Positions 1 to 15,298 of a DNA stretch of 64,000 nt are shown in pieces; position 1 is the stretch's first letter, and each line of letters begins with the position of its first letter. The translations under genes were made by a program, and so were the position numbers. The stretch comes from Craspedostauros australis (lineage: Eukaryota): positions 1 to 64,000 of the forward strand of contig JALAGF010005880.1 of the NCBI GenBank assembly GCA_030167865.1, read 5' to 3'. The notes under the pieces were generated by a model. That model was not told where the DNA came from and ran no database searches. It worked only from the letters and a program-made list of their open reading frames with translations.

Positions 1-2641
1 TCCAAGTGCGTATGAGAGAATAGCGGGTGAACGATGCACATATATACGTACATCTTGACATATACTCACATGTACATCTCGACAGACGCTGCCCAAAGCA
101 ATTTGTATGCGTGTCGCTTGAGGTCGCTGATCGCCCGCTCCGCTCGGTTTTGATTCTGATTCATGGAAGCAGTGAAGGAGTGCTCGATCATGTACCGCAT
201 CGCCACAGCCTTCCATGCCTTGACGGTTTGGACCTGTGAGTAGTCTGAGATGAGTAAATCAGGTGCCCTGACCTGTACAATGAAATCGGTGAGCGCCTCT
301 GGCTCCATCGCCTCTCGTCGGAGCGGCTTGACCCAGATGAATTTGGACTCGCTGTGTGCAAAGAGCTGGAAGCACTTGTAGTGTCAAATGGATGGGACCG
401 TGGAGAAGAATAGATCGGTTTCCACTCTTCCCTTGATTTGGTGTGGCCGTAGCGCGCCCGCTCGCTGCGCACGGTACTGCCTCGGGATGAGTCTTGACTC
501 CGCGTCGATGGGAGTATCGGCCAGCTGCGTCGATGCTGTTTTCGTTTTCTCGACCACCTGTTGTGAGAGATACCGGAAAACCTTGTTGAAGTTAACACTG
601 GTGTGGGATTGCCAAACGTGTCTGTGTCTGTCGCATATAGTAATATTCTTAGTTTGAGTTAGCTCGCGAGCTGTCGGTTTACGAATTGGGATGCACAGGG
701 TATTGCTGTCGTGATTGGCCAGTGGGATGCTGATGTCAGATGTGCGCATGTGGTGTGTATTGAACAGCGACTCCATCTGCCGTGGATGCTTATCAAGAGC
801 CATGTAATATGCCTTGATGAGGATCACTCTGCCTTCTGGCGGCTCGTACGCTGCCACCGCGTCAACCATTGGAAACGTCTCGATTTGCGAGTCGACTGTC
901 GCCCCTCAGGGTGGAACTGCTGCTGGTGATTTTGGGTTACCACCCATCCAGACTCATGAACAATGTCGCCGTCCGCGCCTGAGTCTAGAATGATATTGCC
1001 ATGGCTACTATTAGTTACTCTTGCCCGTCGAATCGTGTGCTCTGTATGCGGGTCGGCGCTTCTTGGACGCGACTCTCGTAGCGTATCCGGGGTTGTATGC
1101 CCTGGCCCGCTCTCCGCGGCCTTTTGCGTCAAGTCCACACTGTCTTGGTCCTTGATGCATATGGCGACCTCCGACTGCTGGCACGAAGTGCCTGTCATTG
1201 GTTGTCAGGAGCCATTGTCACATGGTCCATACTTCTTGGTTCAATTGGTCTTGTTGCCGAATCTGGTGCGCTTGTTGGGTTTGCGCTGAGCGTGCTGCTC
1301 CTGGGTCTTGGCAAACTCAGCGGGTTTGTTGTGCTTGAGCGTCTCCTTGCTGATGAGCTCTCCTATCTCGCGGAAGTGACGCGAGGATTCCACCACAATC
1401 ACTTGTGCGGGGGTGGGAAGGCTACAGAATACAATATCTGGTAGTCGGTACATCGGTGGTTTCTTGCGATCCCCGGATGTAGCTTCAAACGGTCGCTTGC
1501 GGTCCGTTTGCCCATCCTTCTGGTGCGCGCGTCGATTGCACCATGGAGATCTGTCGATCTCCGCGTTGGAGAGGCCCTTGTTGTGCTTCATGAGAGTCTC
1601 GCAGACCCAATCAAAGGGCTCAGCTGTCTCTTGGAGGCAAGAGACCATACTGGTGAATCGCTCATCGCAAATGTTGTGGAAGAATCTTGCAATCTTCTGC
1701 TTGTCGCTCATTGCCTTCCCGTTGTTTTCTATTGCCTGAACAGACATGGAGAAGTCATTGACAAACGCGCTGAACGGTCCAGATCCGTTGTAGACGAGTT
1801 TGGACAGTTTGTCTTCCTCTGTTGCCACAATGTCGGCCCTGTTCTCAGTGGATTTGTATGTACGGATGAGGGCCTGGAAGGCTGCATGACCGCTGTCTCT
1901 TTTCGCGAGGATCATGTAGTTAGCGTGTCCTTGGCACGTTGTCGAGTTAAGCACTGTGTAGAACTGGGTGTCGACGTCCTTGCAGTAGTGGGCCTGGTGT
2001 GTCTTTTGCATGTAGTCTGCGTATCTGGTCGTGACTAGCTGGCGGATGAAGTTGATCTTCCACTGGTACCATTCAATGTTGAGTCCGCTGAATGGCTCCG
2101 CATCTAGCAGGGCGACTTGTCATACTTCCATCCGGTTGGCATTGATGGCGATCGGCGTACTTCCAGTGGGCGCCTTGGTGAGTGTACCACAACCTCGTGG
2201 CTTGTTGCCTTGGCGAGTTCACGATTGGCAGCTTCCTTCATTGCGAGTTCCAATTGCATTTTGGTCGCCTTGCTGGCGACAGGAGTCTCAATGGTTGGTA
2301 CCTCATATCCGGTTGTTGTAGTGAACTCGTTGATGGCCGCCCAATCGGTTGCTTGGTCGATTTGCCGTTCTTTCGCGAAAGCGAAGATGCAAAGGATGTT
2401 CTCAATGTTGATCGAGGTGAGTGTTGGTGAGATGGCCAGCGCTTGGATGATTCTTTTTGTCTGGACTCTTGATGGCGCGTTCGATCCTTCTGAGTTGCTT
2501 GTTGATGAACTCCATTTCTTTGTCATCGAGGTCAGCAAGTTCCTTGGTTACGGCTGTCAAAGCTCGGTTGTTGATTGGTCTTGCCATGGTGGTTGATGTC
2601 GTAAAGGTGATATGCTTGTTGGTAAACCATGACTCTTAATC
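1..2641 (-). mobile_element. Decayed Ty1/copia LTR retrotransposon (CoDi-like), internal region, truncated by the window edge (element A)
   Basis: Collinear minus-strand fragments. Gag starts at ATG 2587 and includes EPFSGLNIEWYQWKINF just upstream of ORF 1241-2011. Protease IILDSGAD is in ORF 824-1198, followed by VDAVAAYE...ESLFNTHHMR (384-869) and integrase core APDLLISD...QNQNRAERAISDLK (66-308). Several frameshifts and in-frame TGA stops (2120-2122, 1241-1243, 1205-1207). Confidence 0.9.
2628..2641 (-). promoter_or_regulatory. Primer-binding site GATTAAGAGTCATG, complementary to the anticodon arm of tRNA-Lys(CUU)
   Basis: On the minus strand it directly follows ...CTTTGACA (LTR end). 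The plus strand reads CATGA-CT-CTT-AA-TC, an anticodon stem-loop with CTT. It lies 41 nt upstream of the gag ATG. Confidence 0.7.
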
Positions 2642-2790
2642 TGTCAAAGTGCACAAGTAAATCCTGGAGACGTATTGGCCCGTTGTTGCGTGCCCTGGTC
2701 GGAGCTCTTGTTCTTTTATTGTGAGTTGTTCGAGGACAACCTCCGACCAGTATTTTGACTCATATGATTAGTAAAGAGGTAAAAAGTACA
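2642..2790 (-). repeat. 5' LTR of element A (inner end firm, outer end uncertain)
   Basis: Inner boundary TGTCA (plus strand) abuts the PBS. Minus-strand AATAAA at 2715-2720. Candidate outer end GTACA at 2786-2790 gives TGT...ACA termini. No partner LTR is in the window. Confidence 0.5.
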
Positions 2791-2800
2791 GAGAAAGCTG

Positions 2801-3573
2801 TCACCTGCCATCGTCACCATCGTTTCTCTTGCCAACATCACCTTCATTGCCATCACCATTGCCTTCCGTGATGGGATCATTCAGGTTGCTTTCCCCATCA
2901 CCATCTTTGTTGCCATTACCACCATCGTCCTTGGCAACAGCATCGCTGTGGCTAGCACCACCACCTTTGTTGCCGTGGTGGCGACCATAGCCACTGACAA
3001 CGCTATCCTGGGCGTCATCATGGCTGTCTATGTCAATGCTGCCCCAATCAACACCACTGTCGCTGTCAGCATCATCGTGGTCATCGAATGCATGACAGAT
3101 AACGCCATGTCTGTCATGAAATAGGAGTAGTACCTTTGTGTGCGGTCTGGGGTAGCCGTCGTCAAAACGGAATGATGGATGTAGATCTTCATGAACAAGT
3201 TGAAAAACGCAGATGATAGTTGAATTGGATAGATCGCCCTGAATATTTGTTGTCGATGGCATGGATGATACCAATGGAGGGTTGTTGACAAACGGGATGA
3301 CGACGAGGAGCACGTAGCCTGTGACGAACAAGGCAATTCGCATTCACAAGAAGCTGCAGGAAAAGCGAGACAACCAAGTGCGGGAACCAGAGAATAGCGC
3401 AATGAAATGCCCATCATGAATAGATCAAGATAGCGACGTTGCGATAGAAAGAAACGCTGACGAGGCGCATATCGCCAAAATATAACCGTAATTAACCAAA
3501 AAGACACCATCGAAAATATTAAGTCACGAACAACCAAGACCCATTTCCAAAATTTGAGGAGGAAAAATAACAC
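2801..3573 (-). other. Overlapping uncharacterised ORFs (hydrophobic N-part, D/G-rich C-part), probably TE-derived or decayed
   Basis: ORFs 3028-3573 and 2801-3343 are in different frames, have no recognisable motif and sit between retroelements. Confidence 0.25.
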
Positions 3574-3755
3574 GGCGTTGTGCGTGGTAGATAAGGGTGT
3601 ATAACTCTTGAAGCAAAGGTCGGATGAAGACCATTTTTATATGGATAAGATCGCGCGGTGGTCTAGATTATGTTTTTATATGTCATTTTAAATTTTACGA
3701 AAATCTGAGTCACGACTAGGCGCGACTGCACCTTCGTTCACTCAAGTGGGTCTTA

Positions 3756-3829
3756 TCGTTTAAGGACGTTCATTCCCTTACGGTTTGCAGCTTTTCGTTC
3801 AAGGACGTACATTCCCTTACGATTTGCAG
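3756..3829 (+). repeat. Two near-identical 35-bp direct repeats (period 39) just upstream of the 3840 ORF
   Basis: tcgtttaaggacgttcattcccttacggtttgcag and tcgttcaaggacgtacattcccttacgatttgcag, with 3 mismatches. Confidence 0.85.
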
Positions 3830-3839
3830 TATCTACATC

Positions 3840-5327
3840 ATGCCTTCCAACACCCCCGCCCATCGCCTCGCTCCATCATCCGCCATGTCCTTCGATGCAT
3901 CTGACACATGCGCAGGGCTGCCTGACAGTCTCGTCACCGCTGAGACCATCACGCGCCGCCTCGGATGGATTTGGTTGGCAACGCTGCTCGCAGACATGCA
4001 AGTCGAGTGCGACGATGAGTTCTTTGATCTGCTTGAACTCTCAGAGCACGAGTTCTATGCATGCATGTGCGCGTCGCCAGTGGTCACCATCATCCGCATG
4101 CGCAGTATGTGGAAGCTCCGCTCGTGGTATCAGGACTTTGGTCAGGGCGCTCATGGCGATTGGATTGATGCCATTGGCATGCTTGATGCACACTCCTTCC
4201 GTGCGTATCGCCGGGGCGAAGACATCATTCCCGCAGCATACATTGGCTCCGTCTTCCATGCACGTACGCCATTGGCATCAACATCATCTTGTCGCAACAT
4301 CGGCATCAACCATCCTGATGATGGCCATTCACTTGCTGTCCAACGTGCCCACAGCCGCTGTGTTTCGCATGACAACGCTTGCTTCCGTGGCAACCGCGTT
4401 GGAGACAACTGCACCATGGCTGCGCAACGCATCCACAGTGCTCACGATCGCAACGGTGTTGATGGCCACAACGCGCCTCCGCCTCTTGTTCCGAACGAGA
4501 ATTTTGCTGACACTGGTGTTCCGCCGAACCTTCGCAGCAAAGATCTCGACGATGCACGCTCGCCTCCCATTGGCTTGAGCACGGATCCCAGTGACGTTTT
4601 CGAGCCCATTGCAGAACACGGTTCTGACATCATTTTGTGTGGTCTCGCGGATCGTCTCAAGTCGGACGAATCCGGTCGTCAGCGTCATGGTGGGTACCAT
4701 GCCTACACCCCACCTGGACGACTTGATGGTTGCACATCCCAAGCATGGGATCTGTGCTTGGTGCGTCTCAAGGATGATCCGCCCACCACTGTACTCTATG
4801 GTAGTACCCACTTATGGGTCCCAGCGGATCCGGCCCTTGGAGCATNNNNNNNNNNNNNNNNNNNNNNNNNNNNNNNNNNNNNNNNNNNNNNNNNNACTGG
4901 TGTTCCGCCGAACCTTCGCAGCAAAGATCTCGACGATGCACGCTCGCCTCCCATTGGCTTGAGCACGGATCCCAGTGACGTTTTCGAGCCCATTGCAGAA
5001 CACGGTTCTGACATCATTTTGTGTGGTCTCGCGGATCGTCTCAAGTCGGACGAATCCGGTCGTCAGCGTCATGGTGGGTACCATNCCTACACCCCACCTG
5101 GACGACTTGATGGTTGCACATCCCAAGCATGGGATCTGTGCTTGGTGCGTCTCAAGGATGATCCGCCCACCACTGTACTCTATGGTAGTACCCACTTATG
5201 GGTCCCAGCGGATCCGGCCCTTGGAGCATTTTGTGATCATGCCGGTGTAACTCAACCCTATTCGGCCTTGCCTGATGGGTTGGATGGTTTCGCAAACATT
5301 GCTTGCCAACATGCAAGTCAAGCCTAA
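3840..5327 (+). mobile_element. Gag-like ORF of a probable non-autonomous plus-strand LTR element (element C); ~367 aa once the 384-nt gap duplication is removed
   Basis: The N-terminal helical segment (DDEFFDLLEL...MWKLRSWY...DWIDAIGMLDAHSFRAYRR) resembles diatom Copia Gag N-termini by eye. No pol motifs. Followed by a G-tract and TGTTG. Confidence 0.4.
4512..5229. repeat. Assembly overlap: 4512-4845 duplicated at 4896-5229 across a 50-N gap
   Basis: Essentially identical 334-bp copies directly flank the N-run. Confidence 0.9.
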
Positions 5328-5816: not shown

Positions 5817-8800
5817 TCACCACCCCATGAGCATGCGGCGCAGATGTTCAAACGCGTCCCGCGCGAGGCCTTTGGTGAAGATGTCGGCAATTTGGTGAGG
5901 TGTTGGCACATGAAGGATCCGGATGAAACCCTCCTTGACCCAGTGCCAGAAGAAGTGCCACTTGGTCAGAAAGTGTTTGGTTCGTGCTGTGATCTTGTGG
6001 TTTGTCGCCAGCGAGATGCACGCCTCGTTATCCTCAAACACGGTGCATTGGATGTTGGTTTGCAGTGGTTGGTTGAGGTTGGTTGATGCGTTCACCTCGT
6101 TGATGAGTTGTTGCGTCGGGATGAGGGCACGCATAGCAAGAGACAGTGCGGCGTACTCCGATTCCATAGTGGACAAAGCGATTTCCGTCTGTAGTTTTGA
6201 TTTCCACACGAGTGGGCAGCCGCCGAGGATGATGACATACCCCGTGCGAGAGCGCACCGCATTTGGGGAGTCGTCGGACTCGCGCTTGTATAGACCGGCG
6301 AAGTCGGCGTCGACATAGCATTCCATGTTGAGCTGGCCTGTTGGCCGTACGATGGTTCCCATAGTTTTGGTGTGGCGGAGATAACGCACTATCATTTTGA
6401 TGGCCTTTGCGTGTGGCTGGCGAGGATCGTTGCTGAATCGAGCCACCTGGGATACGGCGAAGGCCAGGTCGGGGCGCGTGTTCGTTGTCAAGTAGAGCAG
6501 CATGCCGACGATGGAGCAGTAGTTCCATGCTTCCTTCATTGGGACTTGGTCGGTCGATGCTCCAAGTGACAGTTGCGTTGTAGGCGTCACATTGGGTTTG
6601 CAGTCCTGCATGCCGGTGGCTTCGATGATCTTGTTGATGAGACCGGTCTGCTTGAGGTGGATGGTGTTTGCCTTGGGGTCCCTGTGCAGCGATATCCCCA
6701 GGAATTCTGTGAAGGTACCTTCTCGTGTGAGGTCAAATCCACGCTTGCGCATGGACTCAATGAATGTGTCCGCTTCTTCTTCCGTGCGCGAAGCAATGCC
6801 GGCATCGTCCACATAAAGGACGATCATCATCCCATCGCGCATGAATAGACACTTCTCTTGATCACACGCATGGAACCCTTCCGCGAGAAGAGCGCGCACA
6901 AGGTGTTGGTACCATAGCTTGGGAGCTATAGTTAACCCGTAGAGGCTCTTGATCAGCTTGAGGCATGTATCGGGTCCGTTGGTTGATCTGAATCCGCGTG
7001 GAAGGTGTAGGTACACAGGCCGATGGATGTCGGCTTGGACGAATGCATTCGAAAAATCAATCGATGTCGTGACCCAGCGAAGCAGAATGGAAAGGATGAG
7101 AAAAACTCGGACGGACGACCACGCGACGACTGGAGCGTAGGTAGCTTCCGTTTCGGTCATCATGTCGCCTCTGCAGCACCATCGGCCCTTGTACTTCTTG
7201 ACTGTGCCATCAGGCATTCGCTTGCGTCGGAATACCCACGTGCCTGGAAAGATGCGGTCGGTGGTGGAGGACTTTGGTACCTCAATCCATGTCCCTTTCT
7301 TAGTGAGGTCGTGGATTTCCTTGTGTGCGGCGGCCATCCATTTGCTCTTGTTGTCGTCGTTCATTGCCTTGTTGAAGGAAAGCGTGTCTGGGTCGGCTTT
7401 TGACGCCTTGTAGCTGAAGTATCGGTCTGTGATGCTGAGGTCACCGCCGCTGGTGAAAAAGCTGAGTAGGTCGTATGTGATGAGAGCGTTGTGCTCGCCG
7501 TCGTCGTTGTTGTCGCGGTCGAGGGTGGCTGCCATCGCATGATGCTCGGTGCGTTCAGAAGGCTCGAACTCACTTGGTGGAACCGGGATATCCGGTGGGA
7601 TTGCCGGAGCCACTCCGAGTTGGACGAGCAGGTGATGCAGTGCGACTTCGTAGCGTTCATTATGTGTGACGATGTTCCAAACGCAGCTGGCTCGGGTCAT
7701 GAAGTTGTACAGTCTTTCGCTGTCGTCAGGTGGCCGCACGTCGTTATTGACTGCTGTGATTGCTCGCTCGAGGGTGTATGGTACTCCCTCTGTCTGTGGA
7801 ATGAAACCGAAGTAGGAGACCGGTAGCTCGTATTCGTCAGCAAGGATGAGGTCGTCGAGGGTTTCGATGAGTTGGCGGATGGCGTAGTAGAGGCACTGCA
7901 TGCGAACGTCTCTCGATGGGAACCTGAAGTGCACAACATGATCGAAATAATGTTCCATGTATTGGACGACGCGTGGAAGTTGGGTCCACAAGGTTGCCAT
8001 CTCCGTGGGCCCCATTTCGGAATCGTCAGAAGAATTGTTGTCATCCGCGAGTGTGTCGGGCGGATTACTTGCCATTAGCACGTGGTGCTCGTTGGTTGGC
8101 GCTCCTCCGCTCGCCGCTGTGTCCTCTTGTTCCTTGCGCATTCTGGCTCGGATTTCGAGTTGTTGGATGCGAAGCATCCTTTCCATCTCGAGGTCACCCT
8201 GTGCCCAGCGTCGTTCTTCCCAAGTCAATTCTGTGGTTTCGATTGTCGCTAGATTTCGGAGCATGGAGTCAGCGTCGCGCACCAGAGCGTGGGCCTTCTG
8301 TGTTACTGTGTCATCCTGATGAGTGGTGTACTTCTTGAGTGTCGCAAGGCAGGTCTGGAGAGTGTTCTTCATGTCTGCCACGGCTTGGTCCTTGCTGGGT
8401 TCACTCATTGCGATGGTGGTTACGTTTGCGCTGGTTTCGGATGGTTGTTTGATGTCGTTGGCCCAGACCACTTTTCCACCCAACGTGTTGTAGGTGAGGC
8501 GCTCGACGGTCCGTCGCTCTCGTGTTGTGCGCTTGTTGATGCGTTCAGAGCGGCGTAGTGGAGGCGGTTTTGCCTTTCTAAACGTCGGTTGTTCTGTTGG
8601 TGCAGTGATGGGTTTGCGCAGCGGTGAAGTTGGAGGGGAGTCGATCGGTGGTTGCATGTCGTCGTCACTGTTGTCGTTGGCAACTCCCTCTGTCGGTGGC
8701 AACGGTTTAGGGAGACTTGTCGGAGTCTCTTCGGCTCCCTCTGTCGACGGCATTGGTGGCGTCGGCTTGTTGGTATCGGTGGTTGTTGGCGAACGACTGA

Positions 8801-11800
8801 TTTGTTGAGGTGGCTGCACTTGGTCAGTTGGGGTGATATCGTCCTTCGTGTGTGTTGTCACAGGTTGCCTCAAAATGTGAGTTGGTGAATTTTTTTCATT
8901 CACAACCGGAGTTCTTGTGTTTGGCGTTTCTGGCAACAATTTTGCTGGCGGATCGTCATCGTGTGAGGGAAGGAATCGCTGATGGTCGGCTTCATCCTCT
9001 CGCTCAATGTCCCGCTCTTCCATAGCAACGACATCGTCGTCATCGAACGGTATTTGATACGTAGTATCGCCAAACATGTGTGTCCATTCCGTTGAATTGT
9101 AGTCTGGGAGATCAGCCAGATCAGTCGCTATCGTCGCAAACCAATCGTCAAACACAACGTGAAATTGTGGTGTGATTGATCCCGTCCTCGGCGAGAGGAC
9201 CAGCGGAACCGTGGATGCGTGGCGAGCGGAGAGTCCCATGTTTACATAGCGTTCCCCACGTGGTTCCCATCTTGGTATCTTGCGGCTGTCGCCGAGCGCC
9301 TTGTTCAAGACGTAGACGGGGCTGCCCCACACATGTAGGTTGTGTAGCTGTTTCAGGGGCATGCGCGTGCGCGAGAGAATATCCAAAGGCGTGAGACCTG
9401 TTGCTGCGCTTGGTACGCGATTGTGTACGTAAGCGGCATGGACGACGGCCATGGGCCAGTGCTGGGCATCGAACATCGTAGGCCAATGAATGCTTTGATG
9501 CATCATCATTGTTCGTGCCATAGAGATGATCGTGCGGATGCTGCGCTCGGCCACTCCGTTGTGATGGTGNGCGCCGACTCCAGCAAAGCGGTGCACTTGA
9601 TGAAACCGTTTGAGGTGTTCGGCGTAGTCTGGCGATGTAAAGGTGGTGGCGTTGTCCGAGAGGTACGAACGCACGGGTACACCCACATCGCGGCACATGG
9701 ACTCGAAGCGTTCCTTCGCTTCCAATGTAGCGTGGNNNNNNNNNNNNNNNNNNNNNNNNNNNNNNNNNNNNNNNNNNNNNNNNNNGAACATCGTAGGCCA
9801 ATGAATGCTTTGATGCATCATCATTGTTCGTGCCATAGAGATGATCGTGCGGATGCTGCGCTCGGCCACCCCGTTGTGATGGTGAGCGCCGACTCCAGCG
9901 AAGCGGTGCACTTGATGAAACTGTTTGAGGTGTTCAGCGTAATCTGGCGATGTAAAGGTGGTGGCATTGTCCGAGAGGTACGAACGCACGGGTACACCCA
10001 CATCGCGGCACATGGACTCGAAGCGTTCCTTCGCTTCCAATGTAGCGTGGGTCGTGAGGGATGCGACTGGTTCCACGTGTATGTAGCCAGATGCGTGGTC
10101 CACAAACATTGCTCCACCCTTGTACATCTCCGACGCATCGGACTTGCCTCTTCCTGTGAAAAGGCGACCCAAGGTGCGCCCCACGAAGTGGTCCACGGAG
10201 ACTTGTTGGCCCGGGAAGAGGTGATCCGTCTTGATCACTCCCTGTCGGTCTTGGACGGCGTGCTGTGTTGTGCCTGGTGTAGTCCTGCAGTGCTGTTTGC
10301 CAAACTGGCACGCCGCACACAGCGGGCATTCTTGTACGCGGGCAGCGGCTGTCTGCATTTTCCTTGATGCCTCAGTGTTGACGAGGGCGCCGGATCGGAG
10401 TAGGAACTGCACTCGTCTGAAGGAGAGGTGCCCGAGTCGATAGTGCCACTTGAGCAGCTCCTTTTGCGGTTGAGTCAGGTTTTGGTTCTGCTCTGCCACG
10501 GAAGTAACAGTTGTGGTGAGCGCCCCTGGGAGTTCGGTGAGGTCGCTAGTGCGGTATGCACGTGAGGTCGGAAGGTTGTTCGATTTCTTGTTGTGGGCGA
10601 TGCTGGGACCTCGTTCGTCGTTTCCAGGGATGCCGCTCAGCTGGATGTTGTTCGCTTCCACGACAATATTCTCCCCTTTGTATTCATTGAGGAGGCATGC
10701 GGTGCTGATGAGCTTGACTGAGGACTCCGGCACATAGAAAGCCGGAAGGGATAAGGATCGAGGGTTGCCGTTGACGTCGAGGATGGACCATTCCACCCTG
10801 CCTTTCGTCTTTACCTTGGTGCGTCGAAGAAATCCGTTGAGGAAGGTTGGCGAGGTTGGTGCCGAGGTAGCACCTACGAAATCGTTGATATCGTTGGTCA
10901 CGCAAATGGAGGCGCCGGTGTCCCACACCACGTCGAAGGAGCCGTCTTGAGGGATGATTCCTTCCACCTTGTGGGGTGCGGCGAAAGCATGTTGGAAACC
11001 GAAGGTTGTGGCAAGGGTGTGATAGGCGTTGGTGAATATGCTGGTACCTGCGTGTTCGCTTGGGTCTGTGTGAGACGTACGCATGGAGCGAGTGGGAGTC
11101 CTTAAGTGATCGATGTCGCGATGATGTTTTGTGTACCGGTTTGGTGGATGAGCGGGATTCGTTTTGTTTCGCGCGCGACAGGAGTTTTGGTGTTTTCGGA
11201 ACCGGCGAGCACGGCGAACCTTGTTTTGGTGGTTCGCACATGGGGCGTGACGTGGGACGTGGTGTTTGGTGTTGGTGCGCTTGTGAAGGAGAAAATGTTT
11301 GAAGTCGTCGTTCCCGAACAGAGAGTCGTAGAGATCGTTCGAGGGCGTTGCCGGGTAGTGATAGAAGCGTGGTCTTGCTCTATTTGACTTGTTTTGCTTC
11401 TTCCTCCATGTGTTGACTTGGCGGATGGTTCCCATTGGAGTTGGCTGGTACTGGCGTGGGACATTGGTGTGAAGGGCGAATAGCACAACGGCTGTTGTCA
11501 TCCACATCATGATACTCATCACATGCCATCCGCACTCGATGCCGAGTAGAGCGACTTGTGCTGCACAAAGGAGGAGAAAGGTGCCGGTAACCATGTTGAT
11601 GGTTTTGAAGGCTGTGAACACGTTCCACACGGCGGTCCACCAGGAGCGTTCGTTTGCGTGGGCTTCAGCGGAGAGGCAGGTCCATGCTGCATGGTCGATT
11701 TCGAGCTGTGGACTGTTTGGTTTGTGCTTGAAATCGTCGATGTGGCCGGCAGTGCCGTGGGAGATGCGCCAGTGGCGGCACTTCGCGCACCAGTGGAAGG

Positions 11801-13328
11801 TCTTGTTGTTCATGAGCTTTTGTTGCGGCTCACCCTTCCGTGGAGGTGTTGTGATCCACGGGTCCTTCTTTTGTTGTGTTTTCTTGTTGACCTGTTTGCC
11901 CTTGGCGTTCATGAGTTTGCCTCCTTTGTTTTGTTCCAGAAGGCGAGCTTCCTTTGTAGTCGAGGAGTGGTTCGCATGCAAGCGCGGGGTGTTGCGGTCA
12001 CAGGAGTGCCTGTTGGCGTGCCAGGAGTTTCCCTGCAGCTCGTCGAGATAGGCATCCTCAGCTACGCTACAAATGTCCATCCAGGTGAGGTCCTCGCGGA
12101 GAAGGTGGGGCTCCGCTCGCTCGTAGGTCTTGAGGGACTTGTCTTCGATCAGTCGTCTGAGTCGATCGCTGATGTCGAGGATTCGATGACGGTATCGTTC
12201 TCCTGACGTGGTTCTGCCTCCTGCCATGAAGAAGTTGTCTGTCATGGTACGGAGAAGCAAGATCTCGAACTGGTCGGCGTCTTGAAGTTCCTTGCACATG
12301 ATGCGAAGGGTGTCAGCCATGGCTTGGATGTTCTCTCCCTGAAACTTCTGAGGTGTGGTCTTCCTGACCTTCTCTTGGAGCCGTGCGTACTTGTCCAGCG
12401 AGCTCGAGGTGATACTCTTGATGAGTTCGGTGAAAATCACGTTGAAGTCTTGTTGGTACTTCGGCTTGATGCGATTCATCAGGCGGTCTTCGAGGTCGGG
12501 GTCAAGGCTGTCGCGGAGGAATCGAGCGGCAGATGCGTTGTTCTGCTTGTCGTATCGATCCCACAAGTGGCGATAGAAGTCATGGTGGTCAGTGGCTTGG
12601 CTGATGGTGGTGCTGCCTGGGGCATCGAGGACACACACCATCTCGTCGGGGTGTTCGTTGCTCCTCATGTAGGTCATCGAGATGAGGCCTGCGGTGGACA
12701 TGTGATCCTTGAGGAGGCGCAGCATGCGCTGACGGTTGTCTCCGATCCGGAAGCGAGGGCGGATGCCTTTCTCTCGCTCCGGTTGGTTCTTGGAGTCCGA
12801 GCCGTTGTGGAGGACGCGCTGCTGTTGGGAGCTGTCGTAGGACGTGGCTGCGTCTTCTGCAAGGCCAGTCCACTCGACGTTCGGTTTCCCTCCCGTCCAG
12901 GGCACCCAGTGACGGCCAGCCTTGGTGAGGCCACCCATGATGGGTTTCTCTGGCTTGTCCTCGCTCTCGTACGCTACGTACGTGGTTTCGGGTCCGATGG
13001 GACCTTCGTCGGCGTCAAAAGGAAAGGCACCTCCAGTGGATCCAGTTTGGTTGCCTGCGTTCCCTTCGCGTCCTGCGGTTCCCTCGGTTTCACCAGGGTT
13101 CGGTGGGTTGTTGGTATCCCCGGTGTTGCCTTGGGCGAGGTCGCCTTCTTCTTGCCCGGCGGCCGTTTGATCCCCTTGCCGAGCTGGGATGGGGTTGGCT
13201 CCTCGCGAGATTCGTGATTCGTTGAGATCTCGAAGAGCTTGAGCGGCTTGCTGGTTGAGTCGCTCCACGAAGGCCTCCAGCCTGCGTTCTTCGCTGCTGA
13301 TGCTCGTGTCTTCTCCTTGGACGCTCAT
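5817..13328 (-). mobile_element. Ty1/copia (CoDi-like) retrotransposon with uninterrupted gag-pol polyprotein (element B); ~2398 aa after removing the 315-nt gap duplication
   Basis: Order is Gag (WCAKC...H...H knuckle), protease (VVWDTGAS), GAG-pre-integrase (LLKWHYRLGH...CAAC), integrase (VSVDHF, YLSDN, NGVAER), RT (YKGRWCCRGD, IDFSNAF, KSLYGL, LYVDD), RNase H (YVDADFAG, FEDNEAC, ADIFTKGL). Integrase before RT defines Copia. Confidence 0.97.
9471..10050. repeat. Assembly overlap: 9471-9735 duplicated at 9786-10050 across a 50-N gap
   Basis: 265-bp copies flank the N-run and differ at about 6 transitions. Confidence 0.9.
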
Positions 13329-14434
13329 GGTGAGGCGGTGGAGGTGTCGAAGTCGTTGGGCTTCGCTTGGTGTCGACGGTTGTCTCGGGCTTGGCTGCGC
13401 TTCCCCCTTCGATGGTGAAGGTGTGCATGGGGTGTTGGCAGGAGTGCTCTTGAGACGTACACCTGGTTTGCAGGTGTTGGTGGGTGCGCTTGCTTAGCAA
13501 GGGCTTGGTTTGATGATGTTAGAACGAAATCAAGGATGGGATTCCGCACCGAAACGTAGAGTGATCAGATCGTTGTTGGGGTGAGGATGAGTGTTTGTTN
13601 NNNNNNNNNNNNNNNNNNNNNNNNNNNNNNNNNNNNNNNNNNNNNNNNNNNNNNNNNNNNNNNNNNNNNNNNNNNNNNNNNNNNNNNNNNNNNNNNNNNN
13701 NNNNNNNNNNNNNNNNNNNNNNNNNNNNNNNNNNNNNNNNNNNNAATTAACACGGAGACAACACGGCAAATGTGCGTGTTACTGCGTGAAGATGAGGTGC
13801 AAAAGTCAATGAACAAAAACACCGCGATGGCCCGTGTTGTGAATTACGTCTTCTCACGATGTTGCTAGTAGTACGATCACACGATTGACCGTATTCACTT
13901 GAGAAGGTCAGGACAAGATTCGCACGTGTCACACCCAAGATCCAAGTCTGTCCTGATTGGGCAGATTGGTTCATCTTGGCAAGAAATCAATTTCCACGAC
14001 ATTTTTGGATCTGTGATTGAGGGAAAACGATTCTTGCGACGCGAAATGCGACACAAATCTGACACAACGGATTTTCGACCAAAATTTCCNTTCGGAACGG
14101 AAAAGGTAAGAAAAGTGGAGATTTCTGATTGGTCGACGGGTGTCGCTATTGTTAGAGATTTAGCGTGCGCTAATAGATGAGTTGCCTTCGGGCTAACTTC
14201 ATCGGTTGCTTATCAGGATCGTTTTTCCTGAGAGGCTTGGAGCCTTGGGGCTCGGTGTCGTTGGACACAGCGATCTGCGCGCTGAGGAAGTCTCTTTGAG
14301 AGTGAGGAAGGTGGATGTAAGCGAGAACCATTCGCAGCTACCAGTTAGTATTCCGTGTCTTCTGCACGTTGTCAGGAGGATGATCTGTCCTTCAACCGGT
14401 TTTGACGCCGTTTGATGTTGAGAACAAAGCTGTA

Positions 14435-15298
14435 TCAGACGATGATGTAACTGTAGTAGATTTGAAAGTAAGCTGTAAAGATTGTTTCTGATTGCTTGTT
14501 TTATGTGTTAAGCTTACTNTTGACAGGACGATCGAGTAAAAGGGCAGGGTTCATGCTGTCGTGCTTGAGCCGTTTGTGTTGTACATCAACATGTCGTGGT
14601 GGTTCGGCACATTCACAGCTGTTCAGCAGCTCCATCCGCAGAGCAGTACTTGATCCACAGGCATGGATATGCTTCAAGATGCCTGCAGGATTCGCAAGAT
14701 GGTGAGCTGAACAGGTGGCGTGGTTACAGGAGCTGGAGGGTGAGCAGGGCATGGATTGTGGTTCAACTACACACCATGCGCGCGGTAGCCTTTCATTGCA
14801 GTATCGGGTTCGGATACCGGGTACCGTGTACGCAACATGGANNNNNNNNNNNNNNNNNNNNNNNNNNNNNNNNNNNNNNNNNNNNNNNNNNTCAGACGAT
14901 GATGTAACTGTAGTAGATTTGAAAGTAAGCTGTAAAGATTGTTTCTGATTGCTTGTTTTATGTGTTAAGCTTACTATTGACAGGACGATCGAGTAAAAGG
15001 GCAGGGTTCATGCTGTCGTGCTTGAGCCGTTTGTGTTGTACATCAACATGTCGTGGTGGTTCGGCACATTCACAGCTGTTCAGCAGCTCCATCCGCAGAG
15101 CAGTACTTGATCCACAGGCATGGATATGCTTCAAGATGCCTGCAGGATTCGCAAGATGGTGAGCTGAACAGGTGGCGTGGTTACAGGAGCTGGAGGGTGA
15201 GCAGGGCATGGATTGTGGTTCAACTACACACCATGCGCGCGGTAGCCTTTCATTGCAGTATCGGGTTCGGATACCGGGTACCGTGTACGCAACATGGA
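14435..15298. repeat. Assembly overlap: 14435-14841 duplicated at 14892-15298 across a 50-N gap
   Basis: Essentially identical 407-bp copies flank the N-run. Confidence 0.9.

Follow-up and report, generated by a model that had tools for sequence, protein, structure and literature searches.

The minus strand of positions 1–2800 of the DNA that we analyzed, a 64-kb stretch (hereafter, the window), is best explained as a dead LTR retrotransposon of the Ty1/copia type, of which the 5′ part is present: an LTR, a primer-binding site (PBS), gag, protease and the remains of an integrase (Table 1). Judging from its letters, a 14-nt site adjoining the putative LTR end probably served as a primer site for half of a tRNA-Lys. 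We favored this reading because the site is an exact match to real tRNA-Lys(CUU) anticodon arms, lies in the appropriate position and on the appropriate strand before gag, and includes a motif published for the fungal Copia clade FunCo1. On the same grounds, the preliminary description was probably right to recognize a Copia PBS for half of a tRNA-Lys. It had also presented the use of an elongator tRNA as a new switch in priming, and this part did not stand: elongator tRNAs have already been published as half-tRNA primers, namely Lys (FunCo1; PMC5445492), Ile (Bianca; PMC6317226) and Tyr, Ile and Asp (rust-fungus Copia; PMC10886601).

Table 1. Features assigned to the element, in window coordinates.
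Feature	Position	Strand	Basis
Putative 5′ LTR (U3-R-U5)	2642..2800, outer limit tentative	-	Read by eye; GC 0.425, AATAAA
Putative 3′ terminus of 5′ LTR	2642..2646	-	TGACA; inferred only from the usual terminal CA and the adjoining PBS-like site
Putative PBS	2628..2641	-	GATTAAGAGTCATG, complementary to tRNA-Lys nt 27–40 (anticodon stem-loop, anticodon CUU)
gag, decayed	1241..2587	-	ATG 2587–2585; tblastn of relatives
Protease-like ORF	824..1198	-	Aspartic-protease LDSGAD motif, read by eye in translation
Integrase-like remains, several frames	1..869	-	ORFs 384–869, 188–598, 66–308 and 1–216

Direct readout of the sequence reproduced the letters and coordinates that had been given for 2628..2650. 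On the minus strand, TGACA (2646–2642), which we take to be the putative end of the LTR, is followed by the 14-mer GATTAAGAGTCATG (2641–2628), and the junction reads ...CTTTGACA/GATTAAGAGTCATGG, with the slash marking the boundary. On the plus strand, 2628–2641 reads CATGACTCTTAATC and 2642–2646 reads TGTCA. Downstream of the 14-mer, 40 nt separate it from the gag ATG (2587), which is on the same strand. As the preliminary description had stated, the CA is not followed directly by TGG; the nearest TGG past TGACA is 12 nt further on, at 2629–2627, and is itself preceded by CA.

This second CA allows a canonical arrangement, in which the LTR would end 12 nt further in (...GATTAAGAGTCA, with CA at 2631–2630), the PBS TGGTTTACCAAC... 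would pair with a whole tRNA at its 3′ CCA end, and the resemblance to the tRNA-Lys arm would fall on the last bases of U5. We consider this very unlikely, even though CA is followed there directly by TGG and the window holds no second LTR or other copy that would fix the boundary. Finding a TGG no more than 20 nt from a given point is common (about 0.3 by our own arithmetic), and the tRNA implied by the letters would have an A/U-rich acceptor stem starting with UU and a G at position 61, a position that is almost always C in tRNAs. A canonical PBS would also turn both the 14/14 match to tRNA-Lys(CUU) and the 10-nt identity to the FunCo1 PBS into coincidences.

The match to tRNA-Lys(CUU) was examined in viral contigs. 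Among 120 viral-contig loci holding the 14-mer, its complement corresponded to nt 27–40 of a tRNA-Lys(ctt) called by ARAGORN in 36, which bears out the earlier statement that the 14-mer has the form of an anticodon arm of tRNA-Lys(CUU), with its end at nt 40; these are viral or phage tRNAs, not those of the host. A manual count of the first 60 loci gave the same arm at nt 27–40 in 17. Two loci (L038 and L049) had a tRNA-Lys(ctt) with the full CATGA/TCATG stem; the L038 contig is labelled as a giant-virus MAG. Position 26 was a or g in the 16 distinct tRNAs printed, and since base 2627 would need a C at that position to pair, the length of the PBS was counted as 14 nt. An extended, bipartite PBS, in which the bases following the site, to 2613, would be bound by the 5′ acceptor strand of tRNA-Lys, was dropped, as its only basis was a yeast tRNA sequence. 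At its other end, the match stops exactly at nt 40, the priming position given for hemiviruses, which start their cDNA in the anticodon stem-loop, from the 3′-OH of nt 40 (PMC1181622).

Part of the same arm occurs in a human RNA: the human fragment containing GACTCTTAATC is, we presume, derived from tRNA-Lys-CTT. It is described as a tRNA fragment and has GACTCTTAATC in common with the site (PMC13141492).

The arm reads in the tRNA sense on the plus strand, and some retrotransposons target tRNA genes (PMC5006619). The site might accordingly be pictured as the remnant of a plus-strand tRNA-Lys gene or of a tRNA-derived repeat, with the element inserted beside it. We regard this as highly improbable. 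Neither ARAGORN nor Rfam found a tRNA gene in the 64-kb window; because no tRNA gene overlaps the site, it does not appear to be such a remnant. The flanks contain neither a D arm nor a T arm, and the match stops at nt 27 and nt 40, which are both the ends expected of a PBS.

We also compared the site with chance expectation. With up to two mismatches allowed, the 15-mer at the site occurred once in the window, against 0.15 occurrences expected. The 10-mer that the site has in common with the published FunCo1 PBS occurred once in the 64 kb, both strands counted, against 0.05 expected, and a shuffle control yielded a match in 5 of 100 shuffles. By our own arithmetic, the 10-mer would fall by chance on the right strand and no more than 200 nt upstream of gag with a probability of about 2 × 10⁻⁴. 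By these letter counts, the 14-mer site exceeds chance resemblance.

These values bear on the possibility that the 14-mer is a chance resemblance or a relic with no role in priming. TGACA would then not be an LTR end, and the true PBS would have been lost, would lie elsewhere, or would be replaced by self-priming, by a hairpin site like that of fungal GalEa, or by some other mode. The element is a single, decayed copy, the bare anticodon-loop-like shape is frequent (about 1 in 256 positions by our own estimate), and other priming modes are known in Copia (PMC5445492, PMC6317226). We nevertheless think this explanation improbable, since it leaves unaccounted for an independently published 10-mer that falls exactly at the place of a PBS, and a 14/14 match to real tRNA-Lys(CUU) arms that ends at nt 40.

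The 16-mer consisting of the PBS and TG matched ten loci in viral contigs, none of them encoding anything related to the gag proteins or to the polyprotein of a second Copia element that the window contains (see below). A literature search on the motif gave no title about a retrotransposon PBS among the matches listed. The motif was not found in the supplements of PMC5445492, and in PMC12367836 it is present solely within a stem-loop RT primer. A preprint on S. osmophilus contained nothing that bears on the site.

We propose that the 14 nt GATTAAGAGTCATG directly after the CA would constitute the minus-strand PBS and would pair with nt 27–40 of cytoplasmic tRNA-Lys(CUU), not with a tRNA 3′ CCA end. 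The host tRNA-Lys(CUU) is expected to have the same 14-nt arm. On the model of copia, Ty5 and similar "hemivirus"-type elements, the PBS would be bound by a tRNA-Lys(CUU) 5′ fragment whose last base is nt 40, and the 3′-OH of this fragment would prime minus-strand strong-stop DNA through U5-R. The primer on this model would be a cleaved tRNA half, perhaps generated through specific cleavage of tRNA-Lys by the element or by the host. More broadly, diatoms or related protists may have a Copia lineage that is primed by the 5′ half of tRNA-Lys(CUU), either as an old lineage in common with FunCo1 or through independent capture; we offer this generalization tentatively, as slightly on the doubtful side.

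The assignment of the element to the copia type came from gag. Relatives of the gag protein aligned by tblastn to window positions 2200–1463, in the frame of the ATG at 2587, with E = 7e-27 for one of them, P0001. P0001 has the copia-type gag domain PF14223, which was matched in 5 of 11 aligned gag members, and no Pfam family matched the gag ORF of the window itself. By transitive homology through the P0001 alignment and PF14223, the sequence thus identifies gag as copia-type. Only 10 relatives, all distant, were found among 1.84 billion representative proteins; the nearest named one is from the diatom Mayamaea pseudoterrestris (GKY93620.1), and the others are from a marine-protist transcriptome (P0011, an MMETSP transcript) and metagenomes. 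The window gag had no match among longer proteins, viral contigs or metagenome contigs. Used as queries, P0001 matched only itself among proteins and nothing in metagenome contigs, and a second relative, P0009, matched nothing in viral contigs.

The gag of the window is broken by five in-frame stops between 2587 and about 2100, where a competing ORF in another frame (2104–2538) overlaps it; an intact gag ORF of 256 amino acids is left at 1241–2011. With its stops and frameshifts, this copy of the element is dead, and because of this decay the locus is under no present selection. The family to which it belongs was presumably once active.

On the other side of the PBS, the GC content drops to 0.425 across the putative LTR, and AATAAA is visible there by eye. 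Ty1/copia LTRs run from TG to CA, and insertion of such an element leaves a 5-bp target-site duplication. Minus-strand TG-starts that might open the LTR are found at 2738, 2790, about 3096 and about 3290; the start at about 3290 makes a terminal inverted repeat of 6 nt with the putative LTR end. The ORF at 2801–3343 was considered as a bound on LTR length and set aside, its Atlas recognition being low and giving no usable lead. Repeat search and blastn detected neither a second nor a solo LTR in the 64-kb window, nor any other copy of the element. The element extends past the window start, so that RT/RNase H, the PPT and the 3′ LTR lie outside the window.

Ty1/copia elements have the gene order gag-PR-IN-RT-RH, in which the integrase precedes RT. 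In the window, after gag comes the protease motif and then the integrase-like stretch, an order based on motifs read by eye, with RT beyond the window. The translation of the ORF at 66–308 contains a ...NRAERAI... stretch, read by eye as the region of the integrase DDE "E". For the integrase-like piece, the nearest named Atlas clusters were rve (0.83) and rve_3 (0.81), which are weak leads only. A Pfam search of nine single ORFs, including the protease-like and integrase-like ones, gave no match, and comparison of the integrase-like ORF with longer proteins gave no homologues. A second Copia element in the window (5817–13328) had no detectable similarity to the element at 1–2800. The region upstream of this second element is interrupted by an N gap.

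Of the systems that we compared, the closest in its PBS is FunCo1, a clade of Ty1/copia elements in Pezizomycotina fungi (Donnart et al. 2017, PMC5445492). Its PBS is described there as pairing with an internal part of tRNA-Lys. Like the site in the window, it follows directly after the (here putative) 5′ LTR and corresponds to the anticodon-arm region. Of the 11 nt printed for the FunCo1 PBS, ATTAAGAGTCT, 10 are identical and consecutive at window positions 2640–2631; the 11th base is A in the window element and T in FunCo1. The stems diverge past the common 10-mer, continuing as ...GTCT in FunCo1 and as ...GTCATG in the window. According to the same paper, FunCo1 is almost confined to Pezizomycotina, whereas the gag relatives of the window element come from a diatom, a marine protist and metagenomes. 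At the sequence level, having gag relatives from diatoms and marine protists instead of fungi argues against membership in FunCo1.

Priming by half of an initiator tRNA-Met in the copia/Ty5 hemivirus group was reportedly described by Kikuchi (1986) and Ke (1999). It is recorded for Drosophila copia and 1731, yeast Ty5 and Volvox Osser (Hemivirus, Pseudoviridae; PMC1181622, PMC8515867). The window element resembles these hemiviruses in being Copia-type and in having a PBS directed against an anticodon stem-loop, with cDNA predicted, here from sequence alone, to start from about nt 40. It differs in the tRNA, which would be the elongator tRNA-Lys(CUU) and not the initiator tRNA-Met. Half-tRNA or anticodon-loop priming has moved to elongator tRNAs several times, as two reports show: the plant Bianca lineage uses a 1/2 tRNA-Ile primer (PMC6317226), and rust-fungus Copia families and Helenus TRIMs use an anticodon loop, that of tRNA-Tyr, Ile, Asp or iMet (PMC10886601). 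These elements differ from the window element in their tRNAs and hosts, and the accessible parts of both papers do not name tRNA-Lys for either. The diatom CoDi clades (Maumus et al. 2009, PMC2806351) are also Copia-type and likely come from the same host group. They are defined by RT phylogeny, whereas the RT of the window element lies outside the window, and the main text of PMC2806351 does not mention a primer binding site, tRNA or PPT; the single "PBS" in it denotes a buffer.

The window element would possibly be the first half-tRNA-Lys-primed Copia to be noted in a diatom-like host. If the reading is correct, half-tRNA-Lys priming, which has so far been printed for one fungal Copia clade, would reach a very different host, probably a diatom, and would give further evidence of repeated changes, by Copia elements, in the tRNA anticodon arm that they use. 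With either origin, shared or independent, 5′ halves of tRNA-Lys(CUU) would have served repeatedly as primers in different eukaryotic supergroups. The host would be predicted to make or tolerate 40-nt 5′ fragments of tRNA-Lys(CUU), and diatoms would become a second system, beside tRNA-iMet in fly and yeast, in which to find the step that produces the half tRNA. The accepted view of how reverse transcription is primed is unchanged by the finding, and the copy in the window is dead. A practical use lies in PBS annotation in protist genomes, where LTR finders limited to tRNA 3′ ends report "no PBS" for such elements.

On the plus strand, positions 2628–2641 read CATGACTCTTAATC and are followed by TGTCA at 2642–2646. 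From these letters, the minus strand was derived to read ...CTTTGACA up to the junction and GATTAAGAGTCATGG... beyond it, in agreement with the preliminary description, which had placed the end of a Copia LTR here. As that description also claimed, no TGG follows directly after the CA; the nearest lies 12 nt further, at 2629–2627. The observation at 2641–2628 is real. An ATG at 2587 on the minus strand, 40 nt past the 14-mer, starts a short ORF (MARPINN...).

The complement of the 14-mer had been read as the anticodon arm of tRNA-Lys(CUU) ending at nt 40, and tRNA genes in viral contigs confirmed that it has this form. In a scan of these contigs, at least 120 loci matched the 14-mer together with two half-open positions. 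Among the matches listed, the 14-mer fell within an ARAGORN-called tRNA-Lys(ctt) in 36 of 120 loci (17 of the first 60, by hand count), the remaining 84 being unrelated matches, coding or non-coding. The motif corresponds to nt 27–40 where the anticodon begins at raw position 34, as at L038, a locus whose contig bears the label of a giant-virus MAG; the tRNAs at L038 and at a second locus, L049, have the complete five-pair stem CATGA/TCATG. The preceding base was a in 14 and g in two of 16 distinct printed tRNAs, and never c, so the complementarity is 14 nt, not 15. In yeast, the anticodon arm of tRNA-Lys(CUU) is almost the same. GACTCTTAATC is also part of a published tRNA fragment from human (PMC13141492); the parent of this fragment is presumably tRNA-Lys-CTT. 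In many phage contigs (L001, L007, L009, L019, L039, L041, L047 and others), genes for tRNA-Lys(ctt) and tRNA-Lys(ttt) stand side by side in a conserved tRNA cluster (Gln-Lys-Lys-His-Phe), and the 14-nt arm of this tRNA-Lys(ctt) is the same as the window motif. In the window itself, ARAGORN and Rfam detected no tRNA genes; a tRNA gene remnant at the site is excluded as far as these tools can see.

We consider it probable that the 14-mer is a binding site for a half-tRNA-Lys primer. In the proposed mechanism, the 5' part of tRNA-Lys(CUU) (nt 1–40) would pair through nt 27–40 with the RNA of the element just 3' of U5, and RT would elongate the fragment at its 3'-OH (nt 40), producing minus-strand strong-stop DNA, with later steps following the usual LTR-retroelement scheme. 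Either the host or the element may make the cut in the tRNA, as may also be the case for copia and Ty5. In the hemiviruses (Ty5, Osser, 1731 and copia), cDNA starts from the 3'-OH of anticodon stem-loop nt 40 of a half-tRNA primer (PMC1181622); 1/2 tRNA-Met is used by the plant elements Osser, Bryco and Gymco-II, and 1/2 tRNA-Ile by Bianca (PMC6317226). The site does not represent a new kind of priming: the mode is already in print for FunCo1, a fungal Copia clade of 39 families detected in 270 fungal species, with a PBS that complements an internal part of tRNA-Lys (PMC5445492). The site would be a further example of this mode, in a decayed single copy, and possibly the first case noted in a diatom-like host. 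The main text of the paper on the CoDi diatom Copia clades (PMC2806351) mentions neither primer binding, tRNA nor PPT, and we found no title or abstract on the PBS of diatom Copia elements, which is not proof of absence from print.

With up to two mismatches, a 15-mer pattern occurred once in the window against 0.15 expected, a count that proves little because the pattern was drawn from the site itself. A stronger chance test is provided by the independent FunCo1 PBS, printed as ATTAAGAGTCT (PMC5445492). Its first ten bases had a single exact occurrence across the two strands of the window, against 0.05 expected and matches in 5 of 100 shuffles, and this sole occurrence is the 14-mer site. When one mismatch was allowed there were three matches against 1.97 expected, which leaves the exact match as the only informative one. 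We calculate a chance of ~2e-4 that the 10-mer would lie on the gag strand and no more than 200 nt upstream of where gag starts. A 16-mer (PBS plus TG) gave 10 matches in viral contigs, none near a retroelement gene.

No second copy of the candidate LTR was found within the window, and the reading of TGACA as the LTR end consequently rests on the CA and the adjoining PBS-like site. A canonical PBS would place the LTR end at ...GAGTCA (2630), followed by TGGTTTACCAAC. Judging from these letters, it would need a tRNA with an acceptor stem starting UU and G at position 61, a combination that is very unusual in nuclear tRNA, and it would leave the identity with the Lys arm as a coincidence; we regard it as highly improbable. 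For the half-tRNA-Lys boundary, possible outer LTR ends are minus-strand TG-starts at 2738, 2790, ~3096 and ~3290, the last forming with the LTR end a 6-nt inverted repeat that is not significant in 700 nt. The ORF directly upstream of the candidate LTR was not recognised by the protein atlas (recognition 1948, best score 0.84), and may be a host gene or a portion of a longer LTR.

Located on the minus strand, the element extends past the window start, with its RT, PPT and 3' LTR beyond the window. A search of 1.84 billion representative proteins gave just 10 relatives of its longest intact gag ORF at E ≤ 0.001; the top one, P0001, had E = 4.8e-13 and 28% identity. The relatives comprise proteins from metagenomes (JGI/IMG or ENA), a transcript from MMETSP that clusters with P0001, and a single hypothetical protein from the diatom Mayamaea pseudoterrestris. 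Pfam gave no match to the window ORF itself; PF14223 ("gag-polypeptide of LTR copia-type") was present in P0001 and matched by 5 of 11 aligned gag sequences. By tblastn, the relatives mapped to 2200–1463 in the frame of ATG 2587 (P0001, E = 7e-27). Five stops interrupt this frame from 2587 to ~2100, and a rival frame is open across 2104–2538; the copy is decayed. Downstream of gag, Pfam supported neither the protease-like nor the integrase-like ORF, and the protein atlas gave weak leads to rve (0.83) and rve_3 (0.81) for the integrase-like part. For gag, a Copia-type identity is well supported; for the gene order, it is plausible. The alignment of the window gag with its relatives was too divergent as a search query. 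No loci encoding relatives of the window gag were found in viral or metagenome contigs, nor any for P0001 in metagenome contigs or for another relative, P0009, in viral contigs.

ORFs, repeats and gaps in the window
Feature	Position	Strand	Remarks
Integrase-like ORF	66–308	−	...NRAERAI... stretch, typical of integrase catalytic "E" region, read by eye
Protease-like ORF	824–1198	−	LDSGAD aspartic-protease motif, read by eye
Longest intact gag ORF	1241–2011	−	256 aa
ORF upstream of candidate LTR	2801–3343	−	180 aa; hydrophobic N-terminus, low-complexity D/G/N/H-rich tail
Tandem 39-nt units (two)	3752–3829		90% alike; AT-richer spacer before ORF 3840–5327
300-nt direct repeat pair	4512–4811 / 4896–5195		100% identical, spacing 384 nt; flanks run of X in ORF 3840–5327
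Second Copia	5817–13328	−	single 2503-aa ORF with gag_pre-integrase, rve, RVT_2
265-nt direct repeat	9471–9735 / 9786–10050		inside second Copia ORF; 97% identical, spacing 315 nt
N run	13601–13744		~270 nt upstream of second Copia ATG
300-nt direct repeat pair	14435–14734 / 14892–15191		100% identical, spacing 457 nt
Host ORFs	16938–62316		long, intron-free

A second Copia element in the window looks intact, with an unusually long polyprotein for Copia. It shares no detectable similarity with the element at 1–2640, and no flanking LTR pair was found. The N run probably hides its LTR–PBS junction. The 265-nt repeat duplicates part of the integrase core, giving the same peptide at ~aa 1110–1158 and ~aa 1215–1271, the second copy including an X; the repeat could reflect an artefact of assembly or a genuine duplication within the element. 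Both 300-nt pairs resemble contig ends left unmerged at gaps in the scaffold, not biology; N totals 299 in the window. The host ORFs include ataxin-2-like (LsmAD/SM-ATX) and LETM1-like proteins, an ABC ATPase, a Bmt2-type methyltransferase, a PARP with WWE and WGR domains, a Na+/H+ exchanger, a class-V aminotransferase and a protein kinase, and their long intron-free form fits a compact protist genome.
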